The notes beneath the pieces are model-generated. The model was given only the letters and a program-made list of their open reading frames with translations, did not search any database and was not told where the DNA came from. Source: Bacteroidales bacterium (lineage in GTDB: Bacteria > Bacteroidota > Bacteroidia > Bacteroidales > VadinHA17). Taken from it: a stretch of DNA of 64,000 nt. Position numbers and translations under genes: made by a program. The DNA is taken from assembly GCA_038207725.1 (NCBI GenBank), contig JBBQZN010000008.1:743-64742 (forward strand), written 5' to 3'. This document shows positions 32,118 through 41,422 of this stretch, piece by piece; position 1 is the stretch's first letter; the number at the start of each line of letters is the position of its first letter.

Positions 32118-34142
32118 ATGATGTTTTATGAGGGTAGCGAATTAATTGGTTTTCTTTTCAAAATCTTCGCAATAGTCTTGTTTTCAGGAATAATATCAAT
32201 TCCTTTTCTTCCAATAAAAATAAAACCTGTTGCCGCTGTCATAACGGTTGTTCTGCTAGGATCTATTACAGGTATTTTAGCGGTAAAATCATTAACAACC
32301 GGTGGTGTAGAATACCTGCTTGCCGGTGGTTCTTTCTTTGGAGTGATCCCTTTTAGAATTGATGCTCTCTCTGCATGGTTCATAATAATTATAAACATAA
32401 CATCAGTGACAGGTGTTCTTTTTGGTGCAGGTTATCTCAAATCATCTGTTGCTGATTCACAGCTAATTACGTTTCACTGGATGCTCTATATCCTGTTTCA
32501 GGCATCAATGCTGGCGGTTTGTATGGTACAGCACAGCATTGCATTTATCGTTGCCTGGGAATTGATGTCATTATCATCGTTCATGCTTGTACTCTTCGAT
32601 TATACCAATCCTAAAGTACTTAAAGCAGGAGTCAACTACCTGGTTCAGATGCACCTTAGTGTTATTTTATTAACAGTAGCTTTCATCTGGGTCTATTTTA
32701 AAACAGGAACGTTCGATTTTAAAGGAATCGGTTTATTCTTCGGATCAAACATAAACATGTGGCTTTTCCTGATATTCTTTGCCGGTTTTGGTCTGAAAGC
32801 CGGATTTATTGGCCTGCATACCTGGCTTCCGCTTGCTCATCCTGCCGCACCATCGCATATTTCAGGTGTTATGTCGGGGGTGATAGTTAAAATGGGTATT
32901 TATGGTATTTTCAGAGTTATTACTTTTCTGAAAGCTGATTACCTTATTCTTGGTGAGATAATAATCACCTTATCATTGCTGACCGGACTTTTTGGCATTA
33001 TGAATGCCGCTGTTCATCGCGATTTCAAGAAGATGCTGGCATATTGTACTATTGAAAATATTGGCATAATAGGCATAGGTACCGGTCTTGGTCTTATCGG
33101 AATTGCCCGGAACAATGACCTGCTTACATTCTTCGGATTCGGCGGGGCACTTCTGCATGTTCTGAATCATTCAATGTTTAAATCATTACTCTTCTTCTCT
33201 GCTGGCTCGGTATATAATCAGACTCACACCCGTGATATGGATAAACTCGGGGGACTGATAAAGAATATGCCAAAGACAGCTGCTCTCTTTCTTATAGGTG
33301 CTATTGCAATAGGAGGAATTCCTCCGCTAAACGGTTTTATTTCTGAATTCATGATCTATTGTGGAATACTTTCAGGAATTGCTTCTGCAGGCATTTCACA
33401 GATAACTTTGATGATAATATCATTCGCCGGATTGAGTATTATCGGGGGTATTTCGGTTCTGACTTTTACTAAAACATTCGGAACAATATTCCTGGGATCA
33501 CCAAGGCAAACACTAAAACCTGAACCGGAGGAGGTCTCTTTTTTAATGCTTTTGCCTCAATATATTATTGTTGTGTTGATGGTATTAATTGCATTTATGC
33601 CCGGATTTTTTATAAATATTCTGGGTACCATATTAGCTGGCTCCATTTCAAATAATATGGCATTTGACCCTGAGAAACTCGGGTCGTATACAAATGTTAT
33701 GAAAAGCATCAGCATCGCATCATTTATGTTTATTCTGATAACTCTTATAATGTTTCTGATACGAAAAGCAGTTATCAGACGATCTGAGGAGCGAATTGAA
33801 TCAACATGGGGATGTGCATATTCCTCACCTGACCCGGGTATGCAGTATACCGGCAAATCTTTTTCAAAATCGTTCGGGAAACTTCTTAATTTTATGATTA
33901 TTGAGAAAAAAGGTTATCGCGAAATTGAAAGGAGTGAAACTTTTCCTGAACCCCGAAAATACCGGTCTTTTTATCTTGACTTTTTTGAAAACAAAATTAT
34001 TGATCCCGTTATCCTTCTTATTACCCGTTTTATTAACCTCTTTCAGTTTATTCAGAATGGCAAAATTCAGGCATATGTGATTTACGGGATTGTGTTTATT
34101 CTTGCAATATTTCTTGGCACTGTTTTAAATCTATGGCATTGA
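32118..34142 (+). CDS. HyfB/NuoL-like antiporter subunit of Ehr complex, copy 1
   Basis: WELMS, GFGLKAG..HTWLPLAHPAAPSHISG.MSG, ENIG, NHSMFKSLLF, PPLNGFISE, WGCAY. Confidence 0.9.
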   Translation: MMFYEGSELIGFLFKIFAIVLFSGIISIPFLPIKIKPVAAVITVVLLGSITGILAVKSLTTGGVEYLLAGGSFFGVIPFRIDALSAWFIIIINITSVTGVLFGAGYLKSSVADSQLITFHWMLYILFQASMLAVCMVQHSIAFIVAWELMSLSSFMLVLFDYTNPKVLKAGVNYLVQMHLSVILLTVAFIWVYFKTGTFDFKGIGLFFGSNINMWLFLIFFAGFGLKAGFIGLHTWLPLAHPAAPSHISGVMSGVIVKMGIYGIFRVITFLKADYLILGEIIITLSLLTGLFGIMNAAVHRDFKKMLAYCTIENIGIIGIGTGLGLIGIARNNDLLTFFGFGGALLHVLNHSMFKSLLFFSAGSVYNQTHTRDMDKLGGLIKNMPKTAALFLIGAIAIGGIPPLNGFISEFMIYCGILSGIASAGISQITLMIISFAGLSIIGGISVLTFTKTFGTIFLGSPRQTLKPEPEEVSFLMLLPQYIIVVLMVLIAFMPGFFINILGTILAGSISNNMAFDPEKLGSYTNVMKSISIASFMFILITLIMFLIRKAVIRRSEERIESTWGCAYSSPDPGMQYTGKSFSKSFGKLLNFMIIEKKGYREIERSETFPEPRKYRSFYLDFFENKIIDPVILLITRFINLFQFIQNGKIQAYVIYGIVFILAIFLGTVLNLWH

Positions 34143-36160
34143 TTAATATATTACTAATCATAGTATTAGCCGCCGTCATTGGTATTCTCTTTTTCGGGAC
34201 AAAGAGTAAGGCGATTATCGCTGTGTCGGCGGTTTTTGTGATTGCAGCTGTCAGCAGCGTAGTTGCTTTTAAAGCGCTTATAGGTCCTGCCTATGAGATA
34301 ATCTTCTCAGGTACTGCTCTATTTGGCAAGGTGCCTGTTAAGATTGATGCCCTCTCTGCCTGGTTTATTCTGACAATCAATTTCACCTTTATAACAGGTG
34401 CAATTTACGGGTTCAATTATATGCGGGCTTACCGCGACAGAAAGGGCGATATAACCCTTCATTGCATTGCCTATATTATTGCTCATTTTACACTTCTGGG
34501 GATCTGTTCTGTGCAGAATGGCTTTACCTTTCTCTTGCTCTGGGAACTTATGGCAATCTCCGTGTTTATTCTGGTAATATTTGATCATCATAAACCGGAA
34601 ACAATAAAAGCAGGTATCAATTATCTTGTTCAGTCACATATAAGCATTGTATTTTTAATGCTCGGTTTTATCTATGTTGCCTATAAAACAGATAGCTACG
34701 GATTTGATGCAATAGCTGAGTTCTCCGGCAAGCAGTCCACTCTGGCCGGAACTGCTCTTTTCCTGTTCTTTTTCATAGGATTTGCAATAAAAGCCGGATT
34801 CGTACCTTTTCATACATGGCTGCCTTATGCACACCCTGCTGCTCCATCGCATGTCTCCGGAATAATGTCGGGTGTTTTAATCAAGATTGGTATTTATGGT
34901 ATACTAAGAATGCTGTTGCTGATTAAAACCGATTATACAACAATAGGTTATTTTATACTGGCCATCTCTCTTGTTACCGGTGTATACGGGGTGATGCTGG
35001 CAACAATTCAGCATGATCTGAAGAAACTGCTTGCCTATCACAGCATAGAAAACATTGGCATTATAGGAATCGGTATAGGCATAGGATGCATCGGACTCGG
35101 TTCAACAAATAAATGGATGGCGATTCTCGGCTTCTCAGGTGCACTTCTTCACACACTGAACCATTCATTATTCAAATCACTCTTATTCTTCAGCGCCGGA
35201 AATGTATTACAAGCCGCTCATACAGTTAATATAGAGAAACTCGGTGGTATTATCAGGAAGATGCCGCGAACAGCTCTCTTGTTTCTGATTGCAGCTATTG
35301 CAATATGCGGATTGCCACCACTTAACGGCTTTGTATCTGAATTTCTGATCTTCGGAGGATTGTACAACTGGCTTTACAGTGCTGACCTCCTCTCTCTTCT
35401 GGCTATTGTTTTCTCAATAGGAGGACTTGTGCTTATCGGCGGACTTGCAGTACTGTGTTTTACCAAAGCTTTCAGCATTGTTTTTTTGGGAACTCAAAGA
35501 AATGAAAGCATCCCGGAAATCAACGAGAAAGGCTTCTGGCAATTGTTTCCAATGTTTATTATTGCCTCCTTTATGCTGATGATTGGATTATTCCCGTCGT
35601 TTTTTATTAATGTTCTGCAGCGTCCTGTGAACCTCTTTACTCACCATATTCTGTTTAATATGGATCTCATAAAAGTTGGTGCAATCGACTCACTTAGAAT
35701 AATTAACTGGATGTTCTTCGCATTTATAGGTTTTATACTTCTTCTTTTATTGCTGCGTAAATATATTTCAGGAAGAAGAATTGTTGAAACCGGTCCAACA
35801 TGGGCTTGTGCTTACAATGCACCGGGAGCTAAATTTCAATACACAGCAAGCTCTTTTGTTAAAAGTTATGCGAAGCTGGCAAAACCAATTCTTGATATTG
35901 AAAAGAAGGAGCTTGAGATTTCAGAGGTTTTCCCCCCTGAAAAACATTATAAAACAGACTCATATGATAAGATTGAACGCTACTTCATGGATAAACCTCT
36001 AAGTCTCCTCAATAGAATAATTGACCTCTTTCTTTTTCTTCAGAACGGGCACTTGCAGAGGTATATACTGTATGGAATAATATTTATAACTGCGGTTATT
36101 ACATTGCCGCTCATATTTGATAAACTAATAACTCTGCTTCATTTTTTAAATAATTTATAA
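34133..36160 (+). CDS. HyfB/NuoL-like antiporter subunit of Ehr complex, copy 2
   Basis: Full-length paralog: WELMA, KAGFVPFHTWLPYAHPAAP, LAYHSIENIG, NHSLFKSLLF, WACAY. Confidence 0.9.
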   Translation: MALINILLIIVLAAVIGILFFGTKSKAIIAVSAVFVIAAVSSVVAFKALIGPAYEIIFSGTALFGKVPVKIDALSAWFILTINFTFITGAIYGFNYMRAYRDRKGDITLHCIAYIIAHFTLLGICSVQNGFTFLLLWELMAISVFILVIFDHHKPETIKAGINYLVQSHISIVFLMLGFIYVAYKTDSYGFDAIAEFSGKQSTLAGTALFLFFFIGFAIKAGFVPFHTWLPYAHPAAPSHVSGIMSGVLIKIGIYGILRMLLLIKTDYTTIGYFILAISLVTGVYGVMLATIQHDLKKLLAYHSIENIGIIGIGIGIGCIGLGSTNKWMAILGFSGALLHTLNHSLFKSLLFFSAGNVLQAAHTVNIEKLGGIIRKMPRTALLFLIAAIAICGLPPLNGFVSEFLIFGGLYNWLYSADLLSLLAIVFSIGGLVLIGGLAVLCFTKAFSIVFLGTQRNESIPEINEKGFWQLFPMFIIASFMLMIGLFPSFFINVLQRPVNLFTHHILFNMDLIKVGAIDSLRIINWMFFAFIGFILLLLLLRKYISGRRIVETGPTWACAYNAPGAKFQYTASSFVKSYAKLAKPILDIEKKELEISEVFPPEKHYKTDSYDKIERYFMDKPLSLLNRIIDLFLFLQNGHLQRYILYGIIFITAVITLPLIFDKLITLLHFLNNL

Positions 36161-36161
36161 T

Positions 36162-37067
36162 ATGACAGGTTTAATATTAATTCTATTCGTCAGCATCTTT
36201 TTTACCGGAATAATCATTCGGACCAAAAGCATTGCTTCCGGCAGAAAAGGTCCGGGAATATTGCAGCCTGTTAAGGACGTAATAAGACTATTCAGAAAAG
36301 GTGCAGTATATAGTAGTACAACAAGTATTATTTTCCGGATAGCCCCGGTAATCTATTTTTCTTCTGTCCTCATGGCATGTATGGTGATACCATTTGGCCC
36401 ATATAAGGGAATTGTGAGTTTTGACGGCGACTTTATCTTCTTCGCATATCTTCTTGCATTGGGCAAATTTTTTACAATTATTGCAGCCATGGATACTGGC
36501 AGCAGTTTCGAAGGTATGGGAGCAAGCCGTGAAGCATTATATTCTATGTTCGCCGAACCTGCATTTTTTATGCTTATAGGTTCGTTTGCATTACTGACCG
36601 GACATACATCCTTCTATGATATCTTCTCAACACTTCATCTTGGTTCCTCAATTACATATATGCTCGGAGGTTTGGCGGCCTTTGTTTTATTGATGATAGC
36701 GATGATAGAAAACAGCAGGATGCCTGTGGATGATCCCAAAACTCATCTCGAACTGACAATGATACATGAGGTTATGATACTCGATAACAGTGGATTTGAT
36801 CTTGGTTTAATACTCACAACAGGCTATCTGAAGTTTGCGATGTATGGAGCAATAATAGCAGGCTTTTTTACCGGTGGCTTAGGAGCAGCCATCGCTCTGC
36901 CTGTTTATCTGTTCGTTCAATTTGCTTTTGCAGTGGCGATAGGGCTTATTGAATCTTTTATGGCACGTTTCAGAATGAGTCATAACCCCCAGTTTATACT
37001 GGCGCTTTCATCAGTTAGCTTTCTGATTTTTTTAGGAGTACTGCTGGTTCTTGAAAAATTTGTTTAA
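36162..37067 (+). CDS. HyfC/HycD/NuoH-like membrane subunit
   Basis: GRKGPGILQP..D, MDTGSSFEGMGASRE, ENSRMPVDDP.THLELTMIHE. Confidence 0.92.
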   Translation: MTGLILILFVSIFFTGIIIRTKSIASGRKGPGILQPVKDVIRLFRKGAVYSSTTSIIFRIAPVIYFSSVLMACMVIPFGPYKGIVSFDGDFIFFAYLLALGKFFTIIAAMDTGSSFEGMGASREALYSMFAEPAFFMLIGSFALLTGHTSFYDIFSTLHLGSSITYMLGGLAAFVLLMIAMIENSRMPVDDPKTHLELTMIHEVMILDNSGFDLGLILTTGYLKFAMYGAIIAGFFTGGLGAAIALPVYLFVQFAFAVAIGLIESFMARFRMSHNPQFILALSSVSFLIFLGVLLVLEKFV

Positions 37068-37078
37068 TAAAATAATAA

Positions 37079-37711
37079 ATGACAAACGTTTTATTGATTC
37101 TGTTTATTATCAGCCTTCTGTACGTCTCAATAGCCAACAGGATAATCACTTATGTCAGAGTACTTGCCCTTCAGGGTTTTATTCTGTTCGGAGTGACTTT
37201 TCTTCAGCTTCAGGACATACAGACATGGAACCTTGTACTTATCCTGCTTGAGACAATAGTTTTTAAGGCAATCGCAGTACCGGTGTTTCTTGGATACCTC
37301 ATCAAAAGGAACAAGATAACCCGCGAAACTGAACCCTATCTTCCGCATTTCATATCGTTGATAATTATTACAATGATTGTTGTCGTTACTGTATTACTAG
37401 CAAATTCTATACAGGACTCACATCTTGATAAAATTTTCTTTATCGTCTCATTATCAACACTATTTACCGGTCTGTATTTTATTGCTTCAAGAAAAAAAAT
37501 AATCACTCACGTAATGGGCTACCTGATGATTGAAAATGGTGTATTTGTGCTATCGCTTGCTGTAGGGAATGAGATGCCGAATCTTGTTAACCTTGGAATA
37601 ATGCTCGATGTATTCGCCAGCGTACTTATTCTGGGGATCTTCCTTAATAAAATCGGGGATGTTTTCAAGGATGTTGATGTTGACCAGCTAAGCAATTTGA
37701 AAGACTATTAA
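37079..37711 (+). CDS. HyfE-like membrane subunit
   Basis: Multi-TM, ALQG, KAIAVP, GYLMIENG, C-terminal LSNLKD. Confidence 0.88.
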   Translation: MTNVLLILFIISLLYVSIANRIITYVRVLALQGFILFGVTFLQLQDIQTWNLVLILLETIVFKAIAVPVFLGYLIKRNKITRETEPYLPHFISLIIITMIVVVTVLLANSIQDSHLDKIFFIVSLSTLFTGLYFIASRKKIITHVMGYLMIENGVFVLSLAVGNEMPNLVNLGIMLDVFASVLILGIFLNKIGDVFKDVDVDQLSNLKDY

Positions 37712-37722
37712 ACTGAGGAAAA

Positions 37723-39150
37723 ATGACAGGGATCTATCTCATCACAGCCTTTGCTATTGCAGGATTACTTATTGCCAACAGGAGCAAAAAGGTGAATTAT
37801 GCACTGGTGATTTTATTCGGATTGCTCCAGACAGCTTTTACAGTTTATGCCTGCTATAATTATAAAACTACTTCGCTCGAATATTTTTCGTTCGATTCAC
37901 TCGGATTGCTGCTTCTGATGACGTTGAGCATAATAACAATTCCGGCACTTTTTCATAGCTATCTGTATTTGAAACGTCATGAGGAAACACCACAATCGAG
38001 GGCTATCTATTTTGCCGCTATGGTATTGCTTATCACATCAATTACTGCGGCATACCTTGCCAATCATATTGCCGTAATCTGGATTTTTACTGAATTGACA
38101 ACACTTGCGGCATCAATGCTTATTTATCATCACAGGAATAAGCTTGCACTTGAAGGAACATGGAAATACGTTTTTATCTGCGCGATAAGTATAACATTTG
38201 TATTTATCGGTATACTGTTTCTTAGCCTTTCGCTGCAGCATGCCGGATCAAACGATCTTTCATTCAGTAATCTTATGGCGTATAAAGATCAGCTTAATCC
38301 TTTCTGGCTCAGACTTGCCTTCCTTTTTATCTTCACCGGATTTACAGCAAAACTTGGATTGGTGCCAATGTACACTGCGGGTATCGACGCAAAGGATAAG
38401 GCACCTGCACCCGCCGGAGCTCTGCTTGCCAGTGTGCTTATGAATCTTGGTTTTGTTGGCATCTTCAGATTCTATGCTGTAGTAGCTCATACCTCTCTTT
38501 TTCACTGGGCAAACCTTATAATCTTCATTGCTGCATTCCTGTCAATTTTTGTGGCAACTGTTTACATGACAAAGGTTATGAATATCAAAAGAATGTTCGC
38601 CTATTCAGGAATTGAGCACATGGGAATTGTTATGCTGGGACTGGCAGCAGGAGGGGTAGGCTATTACGCAGCAATACTCCATATCGTATTGCATGCCTTT
38701 GTTAAGTCAGGCCTTTTCTTTCAGTTCAATCAGCTTTACAGGACTTTTCAAAGCAAGAGTATGCAGCATGTGGGCAATTATTTTAAGTATAATCCTGCCG
38801 GAGCTATGGTTATTCTTCTTGGGTTTATAAGTGCAACTGCCATGCCTCCTTCAGGGCTCTTTGTGAGCGAGTTTCTGATTTTCAGGTCTCTGTTTGAAGG
38901 GAATCATATTATACTTCTTGTACTGGTATTACTGCTTCTTACAATCGTTATCTGGGCTTTCGGAAGAAACATAATGAAGATCCTTTTCCTTCCTGTGCCT
39001 GGCATTGATGAAAGTACAATACCTAAGATTAATCCATGGGAATCAGCTACTCAGTATGTTCTGATGTTTACAGCCATCTGGCTTGGACTCAACCCCCCGG
39101 ACGTATTTGTCGATCTGATAAATGATGCAATAAAAATCTTACCTGCCTGA
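37723..39150 (+). CDS. HyfF/NuoN-like antiporter subunit
   Basis: ELTTLA, ALEGTWKY, GFTAKLGLVP, KRMFAYSGIEHMG, PPSGLFVSEF. Confidence 0.9.
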   Translation: MTGIYLITAFAIAGLLIANRSKKVNYALVILFGLLQTAFTVYACYNYKTTSLEYFSFDSLGLLLLMTLSIITIPALFHSYLYLKRHEETPQSRAIYFAAMVLLITSITAAYLANHIAVIWIFTELTTLAASMLIYHHRNKLALEGTWKYVFICAISITFVFIGILFLSLSLQHAGSNDLSFSNLMAYKDQLNPFWLRLAFLFIFTGFTAKLGLVPMYTAGIDAKDKAPAPAGALLASVLMNLGFVGIFRFYAVVAHTSLFHWANLIIFIAAFLSIFVATVYMTKVMNIKRMFAYSGIEHMGIVMLGLAAGGVGYYAAILHIVLHAFVKSGLFFQFNQLYRTFQSKSMQHVGNYFKYNPAGAMVILLGFISATAMPPSGLFVSEFLIFRSLFEGNHIILLVLVLLLLTIVIWAFGRNIMKILFLPVPGIDESTIPKINPWESATQYVLMFTAIWLGLNPPDVFVDLINDAIKILPA

Positions 39151-39151
39151 G

Positions 39152-40651
39152 ATGAGTTATATTTCAATAAGTAACCAGCAGTCTGTACCTGCAGACACTA
39201 TACCAGAACTCGACTATTCAAGGTTTCTGGAGATGAATATCTCGCTCATTGAGGGTCATCCTGAAAGACACTGTGTGCTCTATTTCGCTTACAACTATAA
39301 GAAGAGCATACGTCTTATATGCTGTATAGCTGATGATTTACAGCATAATATAATGATTTCAGCCTCTGTTGTAAGAAGTGATGCTAATCTCAATTCTTTT
39401 TCTGCACGGAACTTATCATTTGAAAGATTTGAGCGCGAGATCCACGAAAATTTCGGAATCGGATATTCTGACCATCCGTGGCTTAAGCCTGTCCGCTATC
39501 CGGAGAACGCTGCAGATAAATCGTCAGCAATAGCCGCTTATCCATTTTTTGGTATTGCCAGTGAGGAGCTGCACGAAGTAGGAGTGGGACCGGTGCATGC
39601 AGGTATTATAGAACCCGGACACTTCAGGTTTGTCTGCAACGGTGAGCAGATTCTGCACCTCGAAATTCAGTTAGGCTACCAGCACAGAGGTGTTGAACAA
39701 CTTTTTCTCGATAAGAAAAAACTTATTGAGCGCACAACACTGGCTGAATCAATAGCAGGTGACAGTGTAATAGGTCATACAAGCGCTTTTGCATATTTAT
39801 TGGAAAGTATGAGCGGAGCGGGGCAGAATGGAGAGATGTTATTTTCACGTACTCTTGCACAGGAGATAGAGCGCATAGCAATTCATACCGGCGATCTGAG
39901 TGGAATATGTACTGATGTTGCCTACCAGCTTGGCAGCTCAGTGTTTGGAAGGCTGCGCACACCTGTTATAAATTTCTTACAGGAATGGTGCGGAAACCGT
40001 TTGTCAAAAGGACTCATCAGGGCCGGTTATAATCCATATCCATTCAACATAAAGCTTGCTGGAAGGCTTATTGAGGTGCTTGATGCTTTTGAACCTGATT
40101 TTATTGAGATGGTTGACGAGATCTCAAGACTCCCGAGTACTTTATCGCGTTTTGAGAGAACAGGGATGTTGAAATACGACCAGCTACTGGCAATTGGTAC
40201 TGTTGGAATGTCGGCCAGAATGCATACTCTTGAGCGCGACATAAGGCTATCACATCCTTATGGTGTATATCCTGAACTGAATCATATCCCCGTTATCAAA
40301 CACCATGGTGATGTATATTCAAGGGTACAGATCAGGAAGGAAGAAGTTTTGCAATCCATTGGATATATACGTAATATGCTTAAGAACATTCCTGATCAGG
40401 GGAGCAGGCAGAGGACAGACCTGTCTTTTAAACCCGACACATTTTCGGTCTCACTTACCGAAGGCTGGAGAGGAGAGATCTGTCATGCTGCCCTTACTGA
40501 CAATAAAGGGGAGTTGGTAATATATAAGGTTAAGGATCCCTCATTTCATAACTGGCTTGCCCTTGCACTGGCCGTAAGAAATAATGAGATTTCTGACTTT
40601 CCTGTCTGCAATAAAAGTTTTAATTTGTCGTACTGCGGACACGATCTGTAA
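39152..40651 (+). CDS. Ehr large subunit (HyfG/HycE/NuoCD-like) lacking NiFe ligands
   Basis: FEREIHE, GPVHAGIIEPGHFRF, LGYQHRG, EGWRGE, DPSFHNW; L1 site reads ESIAGD, L2 site NLSYCGHDL, no CxxC pairs. Confidence 0.9.
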   Translation: MSYISISNQQSVPADTIPELDYSRFLEMNISLIEGHPERHCVLYFAYNYKKSIRLICCIADDLQHNIMISASVVRSDANLNSFSARNLSFERFEREIHENFGIGYSDHPWLKPVRYPENAADKSSAIAAYPFFGIASEELHEVGVGPVHAGIIEPGHFRFVCNGEQILHLEIQLGYQHRGVEQLFLDKKKLIERTTLAESIAGDSVIGHTSAFAYLLESMSGAGQNGEMLFSRTLAQEIERIAIHTGDLSGICTDVAYQLGSSVFGRLRTPVINFLQEWCGNRLSKGLIRAGYNPYPFNIKLAGRLIEVLDAFEPDFIEMVDEISRLPSTLSRFERTGMLKYDQLLAIGTVGMSARMHTLERDIRLSHPYGVYPELNHIPVIKHHGDVYSRVQIRKEEVLQSIGYIRNMLKNIPDQGSRQRTDLSFKPDTFSVSLTEGWRGEICHAALTDNKGELVIYKVKDPSFHNWLALALAVRNNEISDFPVCNKSFNLSYCGHDL

Positions 40652-40672
40652 TGTACTCTGAACCTGAATTAT

Positions 40673-41422
40673 ATGCTGAATACTATCAAAATATTACTAC
40701 ACCAGGGAAAACAGTTTATCCCTGATCTGCGAAAAGCAAAAGTTACTGGTATTTATACCGGACGCCCTGTGATAAGTGCAGAGAAAGCTGACACAAAGAC
40801 CCTTGTTGATTGTTGTCCGACTGGTGCTATAAGTGTTGATCCGCTTACCATTGATCTGGGTAAATGTACCTTCTGCAGGGAGTGCGAGAGACTGTTTCCC
40901 GCAAAGGTTCATTTTACTACCGATTACAGACTTGCAACAAATGAAAGACAAAGACTGATAGTTCATGAAGGAATAAGTGTGCCAATTACACTTAATCCTG
41001 ATCTTATAAGAAAAGAGATTCACAGGCTTTTCGGAGGCTCCCTGAAACTTCGCCAGGTATCTGCCGCAGGCGATAACAGTTGTGAGTGGGAATTAAACGC
41101 TGCCGGAAATGTGAATTTCGATATGGGCAGGTATGGTATTGAGTTTGTAGCATCGCCGCGACATGCTGATGGTATTGTTATTACGGGGCCAATATCAAAA
41201 AACATGGCCGGTCCCCTGCAGATGACTTATGATGCCACTCCCTCCCCGAAAATCATAATACTTGTTGGTACAGATGCGATTAGCGGAGGAATATTTGCCG
41301 GCAGTCCTGCCCTCGACCGAAGGTTCCTTGAAGAAAATCATATTGATCTCTACATAGCAGGCAATCCGGTACACCCGCTGGCATTTATTAACGGAGTGGC
41401 TGACCTTTTAGGGATAAAGTAA
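40673..41422 (+). CDS. Ehr small subunit (ferredoxin-HyfI/NuoB fusion) with degenerate Fe-S ligands
   Basis: CCPTGAI and CTFCREC ferredoxin half-sites; FVASPRHAD..TGP NuoB motif; GDNSCE, GTDAISGG, AGNP. Confidence 0.9.
   Translation: MLNTIKILLHQGKQFIPDLRKAKVTGIYTGRPVISAEKADTKTLVDCCPTGAISVDPLTIDLGKCTFCRECERLFPAKVHFTTDYRLATNERQRLIVHEGISVPITLNPDLIRKEIHRLFGGSLKLRQVSAAGDNSCEWELNAAGNVNFDMGRYGIEFVASPRHADGIVITGPISKNMAGPLQMTYDATPSPKIIILVGTDAISGGIFAGSPALDRRFLEENHIDLYIAGNPVHPLAFINGVADLLGIK

Follow-up and report, generated by a model that had tools for sequence, protein, structure and literature searches.

An Ehr-type complex of Bacteroidota whose small subunit lacks the usual ligands of the proximal [4Fe-4S] cluster

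To our knowledge, every characterised member of the complex I and membrane hydrogenase group has a terminal Fe-S cluster atop the chamber that couples chemistry to ion pumping, and the locus described here raises the question of what such a complex does once the ligands of that cluster are gone. The locus lies in a 64,000-nt stretch of DNA from a Bacteroidales bacterium (contig JBBQZN010000008.1; hereafter the window, to whose positions all gene coordinates refer), where seven Ehr-type genes run head to tail on the + strand (32118-41422), the last of them encoding the small subunit EhrS. Ehr denotes the energy-converting or Ech hydrogenase-related complexes (ehrABCDLS), a name first used for Geobacter sulfurreducens (PMC7894505, PMC6688271). 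An earlier note on this DNA had claimed that the ligand motifs of the proximal cluster in EhrS are rewritten as Asp/Cys/Asp/Asn on a retained scaffold, and had left three alternatives: a different metal, a non-canonical cluster, or electron transfer abandoned at this site.

We found that EhrS matches PF01058, the NuoB/hydrogenase small-subunit family (E 6e-18, residues 136-244, 65.2 bits vs. a cut-off of 27), and that HMMER aligns it to MbhJ (6cfw_J, E 1.6e-19) and HycG (7z0s_G, E 4.5e-17). These alignments lay GDNSC on G-C-N-G-C, GTDAISGG on G-A-C-x-x-x-G-G and AGNPV on P-G-C-P-P, which bears out the claimed rewriting: the four Cys-ligand places of the proximal [4Fe-4S] cluster read D134, C137, D201 and N231. 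The scaffold motif FVASPRHADGIVITGP is indeed present in the EhrS translation, and the codons at the ligand places (D134 GAT, 41072-41074; C137 TGT, 41081-41083; D201 GAT, 41273-41275; N231 AAT, 41363-41365) are as far from Cys as had been stated, GAT, GAT and AAT each being two changes from TGY. C137 is the sole Cys in the NuoB-like domain (residues 112-249), so EhrS has one of the four proximal-cluster Cys, and 37 of 120 close homologues have none. An AlphaFold2 model without cofactor has a mean predicted local distance difference test (pLDDT) score of 93.4, with 95-96 around the three ligand motifs; its C-terminal domain superposes on MbhJ 6cfw_J with a template modelling score of 0.84 and a root-mean-square deviation of 2.6 Å, and Foldseek matches the model to MbhJ and PSST chains with a probability of 1.00. 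The same genome carries an ordinary NuoB on another contig, with its CC...C...C ligands intact.

To follow the rewritten site across relatives we used the best 120 of 7,993 scored homologues (76-100% identity; the close homologues above) and a one-genome-per-species scan, which returned at least 528 relatives and from which the best 80, together with the window, gave 81 sequences. All of these 80 belong to the Bacteroidota and include members of Bacteroidales, Prolixibacteraceae, Saprospiraceae, Chitinophagaceae and Lutibacter as well as the cultured Chryseolinea serpens DSM 24574, a strain (locus L062) that carries the D-C-D-N form. D134, D201 and N231 are each kept in 120/120 close homologues. 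At the species level D134 is kept in 81/81 (GAT 32, GAC 49), D201 in 81/81 (GAT 65, GAC 16) and N231 in 80/81 (AAT 43, AAC 37; Y once). C137 is kept in only 83 of the close homologues (T 29, N 7, S 1 in the others) and in 71 of the 81 species. Invariant columns number 71 of 249 in the species set (65-83% identity to the window protein) and include D134, S136 and D201. The median dN/dS of EhrS is 0.054 (range 0.029-0.189; pairwise Nei-Gojobori (NG86) estimates, 85 pairs), and the medians of the other six operon genes span 0.030-0.101 (EhrA-1 0.084, EhrA-2 0.101, EhrB 0.040, EhrC 0.030, EhrL 0.076), with many pairs near saturation and the least diverged pairs giving 0.07-0.19. All seven genes are under strong purifying selection, and since D134, D201 and N231 are kept while their synonymous codons turn over and dN/dS is low, the site has not decayed. 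The suggestion that D-C-D-N marks a conserved clade under purifying selection thus holds for the clade and for the selection, not for the Cys: the pattern that is kept is D-x-D-N. With at most one Cys left, and that one dispensable, the proximal site of EhrS very probably holds no [4Fe-4S] cluster.

The loss extends to the other end of the wire. The N-terminal 110 residues of EhrS bear a weak likeness to the NuoI and HycF family (HycF, E 5.4e-4), and residues 56-98 match the NuoI profile TIGR01971 (E 2.1e-5); the two CxxCxxCxxxCP motifs of a 2x[4Fe-4S] ferredoxin-type subunit (NuoI/HycF/MbhN) are not both present. According to the accessible text on MbsN, its medial cluster is held by the Cys-Pro after the first motif plus the second CxxCxxC, and its distal cluster by the first CxxCxxC plus the last Cys-Pro (PMC8165549). 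By this ligand logic EhrS keeps all four medial ligands and no distal ones. The earlier note was thus right that the fused ferredoxin is down to one potential cluster: C48-P49 and C65/C68/C71 are present, and the second Cys-Pro reads F75-P76. C48, C65, C68 and C71 are each kept in 120/120 close homologues and 81/81 species, whereas the residue-75 place is F in 68, Y in 3 and C in 5 of the 81 species and is Cys in 24 of 25 sister forms that have all ligands. Judged by its ligands, the EhrS wire is cut at both ends, the proximal and distal ligands being gone and one medial four-Cys site being left.

The large subunit, EhrL, lacks the ligands of a NiFe site. Aligned to HycE (7z0s_E), its C-G-I-C place reads A-G-D-S and its C-terminal DPCxxC region reads N-L-S-Y-C-G, and across 71 EhrL orthologues the four NiFe Cys places read A/S/T, S/T/A, S and G, in a protein of which 112 of 499 columns are invariant. 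That this is an Ehr-type complex, as the earlier note had it, is upheld by this large subunit together with the seven-gene set. The absence of NiFe ligands is not peculiar to the window's lineage. Among relatives that share the fusion, the nearest at the 50%-identity level retain the four proximal Cys, and some of them all eight ferredoxin Cys; among 80 metagenome loci around such forms, 50 small subunits have Cys at all four proximal places (CCCC), 28 are Cys-less (DCDN, DVEA, DSDN, DADN, DHDN, DIET or DVDA) and two gave no call. None of the 37 CCCC loci with a large-subunit ORF has Cys at the readable NiFe places (all four in 34, the C-terminal two in 3). CCCC Ehr forms without NiFe Cys imply that loss of the NiFe site preceded that of the proximal cluster, and Ehr complexes with the full ligand set for three clusters are, on motif evidence, in existence.

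The order of the later losses can be read, roughly, from motif counts, which leave 51 sequences off-pattern and were used for the loss order only: 108 sequences are without distal and proximal ligands, 15 lack some or all distal ligands with the proximal four kept, and 26 are complete, with no unambiguous case of a kept distal and a lost proximal site in these counts (one row is ambiguous). P0127 and P0129, for example, have the proximal Cys intact and the distal ligands gone. The wire seems to have been dismantled from the outside in, always with the medial site kept. In a quick maximum-likelihood tree of the large subunit, which is independent of the small-subunit ligand columns, the Cys-less rows, 31 in number, all share a single clade (support 100), which also takes in three CCCC rows whose placement at its base is unresolved; within this sample a single loss event is conceivable. 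In an even sample of the phylum, matches at E <= 1e-40 were found in 19 of 401 genomes (16 of 180 genera): five lack the proximal Cys, one of these reading S..D/D/N, and the other 14 are CCCC, all 14 outside the window's class. All Cys-less forms of the window's lineage also have a Ser two residues after the first Asp (G-D-x-S-x-E) and a Thr or Ser directly before the third-place Asp/Glu. As a separate observation, locus L165 (G379:C11:59960-60780) reads G-S-N-A-D-E, with Ser at the first place, Asp at the second, Asp at the third and Asn at the fourth, the carboxylate being shifted by three residues.

EhrL is nearly the same in the Cys-less and CCCC types: 88 positions at least 95% conserved hold the identical residue in both, and only five positions are fixed differently, all of them conservatively. 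Compensating Cys supplied by the large subunit (C41, C57, C58, C253, C444), which had seemed peculiar to the Cys-less type, were considered and rejected, because the CCCC sisters L114 and L139 have them too; the DVEA-type forms lack C41 and C58 and have C253 in 4/9, C57 in 5/9 and C444 in 9/9. The possibility, raised in the earlier note, that other Cys take the ligand places finds no candidate, with C137 the only Cys of the domain and no large-subunit Cys tracking the loss. Two side observations concern the same protein. In its NuoC-like N-terminal part, the pairs H40-C41 and C57-C58 are kept in 70-71 of the 71 Bacteroidota orthologues and also in L114 and L139, not in the DVEA-type or most other CCCC forms; they may form an extra metal site, and their distribution does not track the loss of the proximal cluster. 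In the DVEA/DVDA-type loci L124, L125, L127, L133, L138, L144, L157 and L158, the large-subunit ORF is 851-936 aa long, vs. about 500, which suggests that a neighbouring gene has been fused on or a domain added.

In the membrane arm the key antiporter residues are invariant. We located the key antiporter residues (the Glu of transmembrane helix (TM) 5 and the Lys of TM7 and TM12) by aligning EhrD to MbhH and NdhD. E124, K210 and K328 of EhrD are kept in 64/64 orthologues, E148, K227, K258, H351 and K355 of EhrA-1 in 43/43, and E138, K220, K251, H344 and K348 of EhrA-2 in 52/52. The TM8 Lys place of EhrD is Asn (N241) in 64/64 orthologues, vs. Lys in MbhH and NdhD. As judged from these alignments, the three antiporter-like subunits keep the key Glu and Lys set, barring TM8 of EhrD. 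In EhrB, 24 charged residues are at least 97% conserved (59 orthologues). We also observed that the TM7 motif of EhrD reads PMYTAGIDAKDKAP rather than the usual PxHxWLPxAH, of which both HyfB-like subunits keep canonical forms.

A second Cys-less family bears on what the rewritten pocket might do. This fused ferredoxin/NuoB-like family, that of P0204, is placed elsewhere in the small-subunit tree than the window's lineage. Of the 120 homologues listed for it (P0204 itself and P0280-P0398; 48-100% identity), 117 have no Cys at any ligand place. Their patterns are DVDD (50), DEDS (37), DIDD (16), DVDS (6), DIDS (5) and three singletons, all 117 having Asp at the first place and 116 of them at the third; one member is named Solirubrobacteraceae. 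Forcing all 18 Cys-less small-subunit rows into one clade costs 174.6 log-likelihood units and is rejected by the approximately unbiased (AU) test (p-AU 0.00017), for a group named after the tree had been inspected and a tree inferred quickly from sequences that are short and in part fragmentary. If the AU result holds, Cys-to-Asp replacement at the first and third ligand places apparently arose more than once, and the recurrent Asp would be hard to explain as the mere filling of a hole; such recurrence suggests a shared new function of the pocket.

How, then, might the complex work? The explanation that we think probable, if far from assured, is that this is an Ehr variant without a redox wire that still translocates ions by a redox-independent, Mrp-like action. 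In a clade of the class Bacteroidia, the Ehr electron-transfer chain would have been dismantled; the lone medial cluster, with no neighbour on either side, would be not a wire but a structural element or a sensor; and the complex would move ions with no drive by electron delivery through the proximal site. Most likely it would be a machine coupled to the proton-motive force (pmf) or to cations, much like Mrp, with a hydrophilic L/S cap kept on the NuoH-like subunit, and in the space of the cluster the polar pocket D134/S136/x137/T200/D201/N231 would form an ionisable hydrogen-bond network or a cation site. Of the three alternatives left by the earlier note, abandoned electron transfer at the proximal site is the best supported, the distal ligands being gone as well. 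Several points nonetheless weigh against this explanation. The absence of clusters is read from the ligands, and the 'medial' label and the position of the N-terminal domain are taken from motif homology. P0127 and P0129, with proximal but no distal ligands, indicate that a medial cluster may take electrons directly from a donor, and a redox role with an acceptor bound in the carboxylate pocket is conceivable. The recurrence of Asp at places one and three in the P0204 family argues for a specific carboxylate role rather than for filling. The NuoH-like subunit and the highly conserved large-subunit pocket are kept, neither of which an Mrp antiporter needs. Finally, a search for expression data among sequencing runs found none.

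Some of these points are better accommodated by the possible, though rather unlikely, alternative of a metal cation (Fe, Mn, Mg, Ca or Zn) held in the rebuilt pocket as the working centre. The complex would then still be a driven pump, with a new cofactor, and the cation would serve either as a charge switch without redox activity or as a mononuclear redox-active site supplied by the medial cluster. The replacements are all hard O/N donors, to which S136 and T200 add neighbouring hydroxyls, and because carboxylates recur in the P0204 family, with two to three of them at the same places in its commonest patterns, the 'different metal' of the earlier note has become more plausible. Rejection of a single Cys-less clade points to convergence, and the medial-plus-proximal relatives P0127 and P0129 make the medial cluster a candidate entry point. 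However, no such site is present in the solved homologues, the fourth place varies among the Cys-less forms (N, A, T, H, S or D), the AU group was defined after the tree was seen, and a buried Asp pair can also have its charge cancelled through protonation or basic residues. We would go no further than to propose, tentatively, that the N2 pocket has been rebuilt at least twice independently into a cation or proton site of two to three carboxylates, a charge switch that would replace the redox centre atop the coupling chamber.

The remaining explanations fare much worse than the dismantled wire. A non-canonical Fe-S cluster with Asp, Asn and Cys ligands at the proximal site is very improbable: C137 is present in the window's EhrS, and in other proteins [4Fe-4S] clusters with a single Asp ligand are known, but many members have T, N, S, A, V or I instead of the one Cys, the domain has no other Cys, and those of the large subunit do not follow the change; the variability of its sole Cys makes this alternative of the earlier note very unlikely. 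Decay of the gene, or of the operon as a whole, into a functionless relic is scarcely credible, for although the Geobacter Ehr is called non-functional and expected to drift in the available portion of one paper (PMC13194489) and a few loci from metagenome-assembled genomes (MAGs) have split ORFs (e.g. L006, L013 and L052), the pattern that would mark decay, namely substitutions unique to one genome with relaxed dN/dS, is not seen in a large clade with dN/dS of 0.03-0.10 for all seven genes, and conserved gene order, invariant key residues and synonymous codon turnover at fixed residues speak against it as well.

The genes of the operon and the sites within EhrS are collected in Table 1. EhrA-1 has hydrogenase 4 subunit B as its best NCBIfam match, and EhrC matches NF008556 (hydrogenase 4 membrane subunit); these, like the NCBIfam matches of all seven genes, fall under the curated cut-offs, which sets all seven apart from ordinary Nuo and Hyf proteins. 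The names ehrA-1, ehrA-2, ehrB, ehrC, ehrL and ehrS, with ehrABCDLS for the cluster, follow earlier usage (PMC7894505, PMC13194489, PMC6688271).

Table 1. Ehr-type operon genes and EhrS sites, in window positions
Feature	Positions	Strand	Length	Details
EhrA-1, HyfB/NuoL-like antiporter-type membrane subunit	32118..34142	+	674 aa	PF00361, E 2.2e-51
EhrA-2, second HyfB/NuoL-like subunit	34133..36160	+	675 aa	PF00361, E 3.2e-56
EhrB, NuoH/HyfC-like membrane anchor	36162..37067	+	301 aa	PF00146, E 2.3e-34
EhrC, HyfE-like membrane subunit	37079..37711	+	210 aa	NF008556, E 6e-22; PF00420, E 2e-5
EhrD, HyfF/NuoN-like antiporter-type subunit	37723..39150	+	475 aa	PF00361, E 1.7e-43
EhrL, NuoC-NuoD/HycE-like large subunit without NiFe cysteines	39152..40651	+	499 aa	PF00346 and PF00329
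EhrS, half-ferredoxin N-terminal part fused to NuoB-like domain	40673..41422	+	249 aa	PF01058
EhrS C48(P49), C65, C68, C71, retained four-Cys site ('medial' by motif logic)	40814..40885	+		assigned after MbsN
EhrS F75-P76, replacing the last Cys-Pro (would-be distal-cluster ligand)	40895..40900	+		codon TTT
EhrS D134-N135-S136-C137, first and second ligand places of the proximal cluster, very probably lost	41072..41083	+		aligned to C-N-G-C of MbhJ/HycG
EhrS T200-D201, third ligand place	41270..41275	+		aligned to G-A-C of MbhJ/HycG
EhrS N231, fourth ligand place	41363..41365	+		aligned to P-G-C-P-P

The flanks of the operon are unrelated to it (a DUF1456 protein, a gamma-glutamyltranspeptidase, an M49 peptidase and others), and the gene order is kept across orders of Bacteroidota: A1-A2-H-E-F-L-S was found in 40 of 80 related loci, and nearly all other orders are shorter, a single A gene occurring in 10 loci and contig ends cutting most of the remainder. 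A redox partner gene adjoining the operon was sought among the neighbours and rejected, the most widely shared neighbour occurring in only 12 of the 80 loci, all close kin. Among further observations on these loci, a divergent protein of about 234 aa lies about 200 bp upstream of the operon in seven of the 80 (L045 and six others) and resembles, by eye, a Crp/Fnr-type regulator, the window having the DUF1456 gene there instead. In the MAG loci L006, L013, L052 and L057 single operon genes are split into two ORFs, by assembly error or a true break; a Draconibacterium sp. MAG (L039) has a partial second set, A2-H-E-F, directly downstream of a complete operon; and in L086 two Ehr operons stand back to back, one on each strand.

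A large, selected clade that keeps the chamber proteins and three antiporter modules and is without the cluster ligands amounts to an experiment of nature on what drives or gates the membrane arm. It also constrains the role of Ehr, in that within the window's clade no electrons would be delivered to the large-subunit pocket by the usual route, and the cultured carrier Chryseolinea serpens DSM 24574 offers a tractable entry point. If the carboxylate charge-switch proposal were true, there would be widespread ion machines of the complex I type that are driven or gated without electron transfer. The expectation of the earlier note that this would be an uncharacterised type of complex stands as regards function, which is uncharacterised, and gives way as regards type, since what we describe is a variant within the named Ehr family.

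How does this variant compare with known systems? Ehr complexes have the same membrane subunits (NuoL/HyfB-, HyfC/NuoH-, HyfE- and HyfF-like) plus a large and a small subunit, and the window's large subunit, like theirs, is without NiFe Cys; Ehr large subunits are described as lacking the NiFe Cys motifs, with function unknown (PMC10284858, PMC4378227, PMC6349859, PMC7304191). The window differs in that its small subunit also lacks the proximal and distal ligands, whereas sisters from metagenomes and from the phylum's other classes retain them all. Neither HypD (PF01924) nor PF00374 was found in the window's 97%-complete genome. In the accessible parts of the Ehr literature, which describe loss of the NiFe site only, we did not find loss of the small-subunit ligands, although the founding papers or supplements may hold it. 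Those founding papers are reportedly Coppi 2005 and Marreiros et al. 2013, either of which may describe the cysteines of EhrS.

MbhJ and HycG, which belong to MBH (the membrane-bound hydrogenase) and to formate hydrogenlyase, respectively, are the best sequence and fold matches of EhrS and share its scaffold motifs, but they hold the proximal [4Fe-4S] cluster on four Cys where EhrS reads D, C/x, D and N; MbhN and HycF are, moreover, separate Fe-S partner proteins, whereas EhrS carries a half-sized version fused at its N-terminus. With NuoB/PSST/Nqo6 of complex I, EhrS has PF01058 and the fold in common, but N2 sits on four Cys, two of them adjacent, and EhrS falls under every NCBIfam NuoB cut-off. 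The likeness to Mrp lies in the operon's several subunits of MrpA/MrpD type, whose TM5 Glu, TM7 Lys and TM12 Lys are invariant, and an Mrp-like, non-redox action is possible; Mrp, however, has no counterpart of the NuoH-like, large and small subunits, its MrpB, C, E, F and G are missing from the window's operon, and MrpE was not found in a search of the window's genome. The closest precedent in the superfamily for altered coordination of the proximal cluster is MbsJ of MBS, the sulfane-sulfur reductase, where three Cys hold the cluster and its free Fe is proposed as the catalytic site (PMC8165549). The available text of that superfamily review lists only four-Cys (MBH, complex I, NDH) and three-Cys (MBS) proximal coordination, with Ehr unmentioned (PMC8165549). 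MBS keeps the cluster and its full three-cluster wire, whereas EhrS has at most one Cys and has lost two of the three sites. Ehr itself is known, its function being uncharacterised; what appears to be new here, as far as ligands can tell, is a widespread, selected, cluster-less version of the complex I coupling site.

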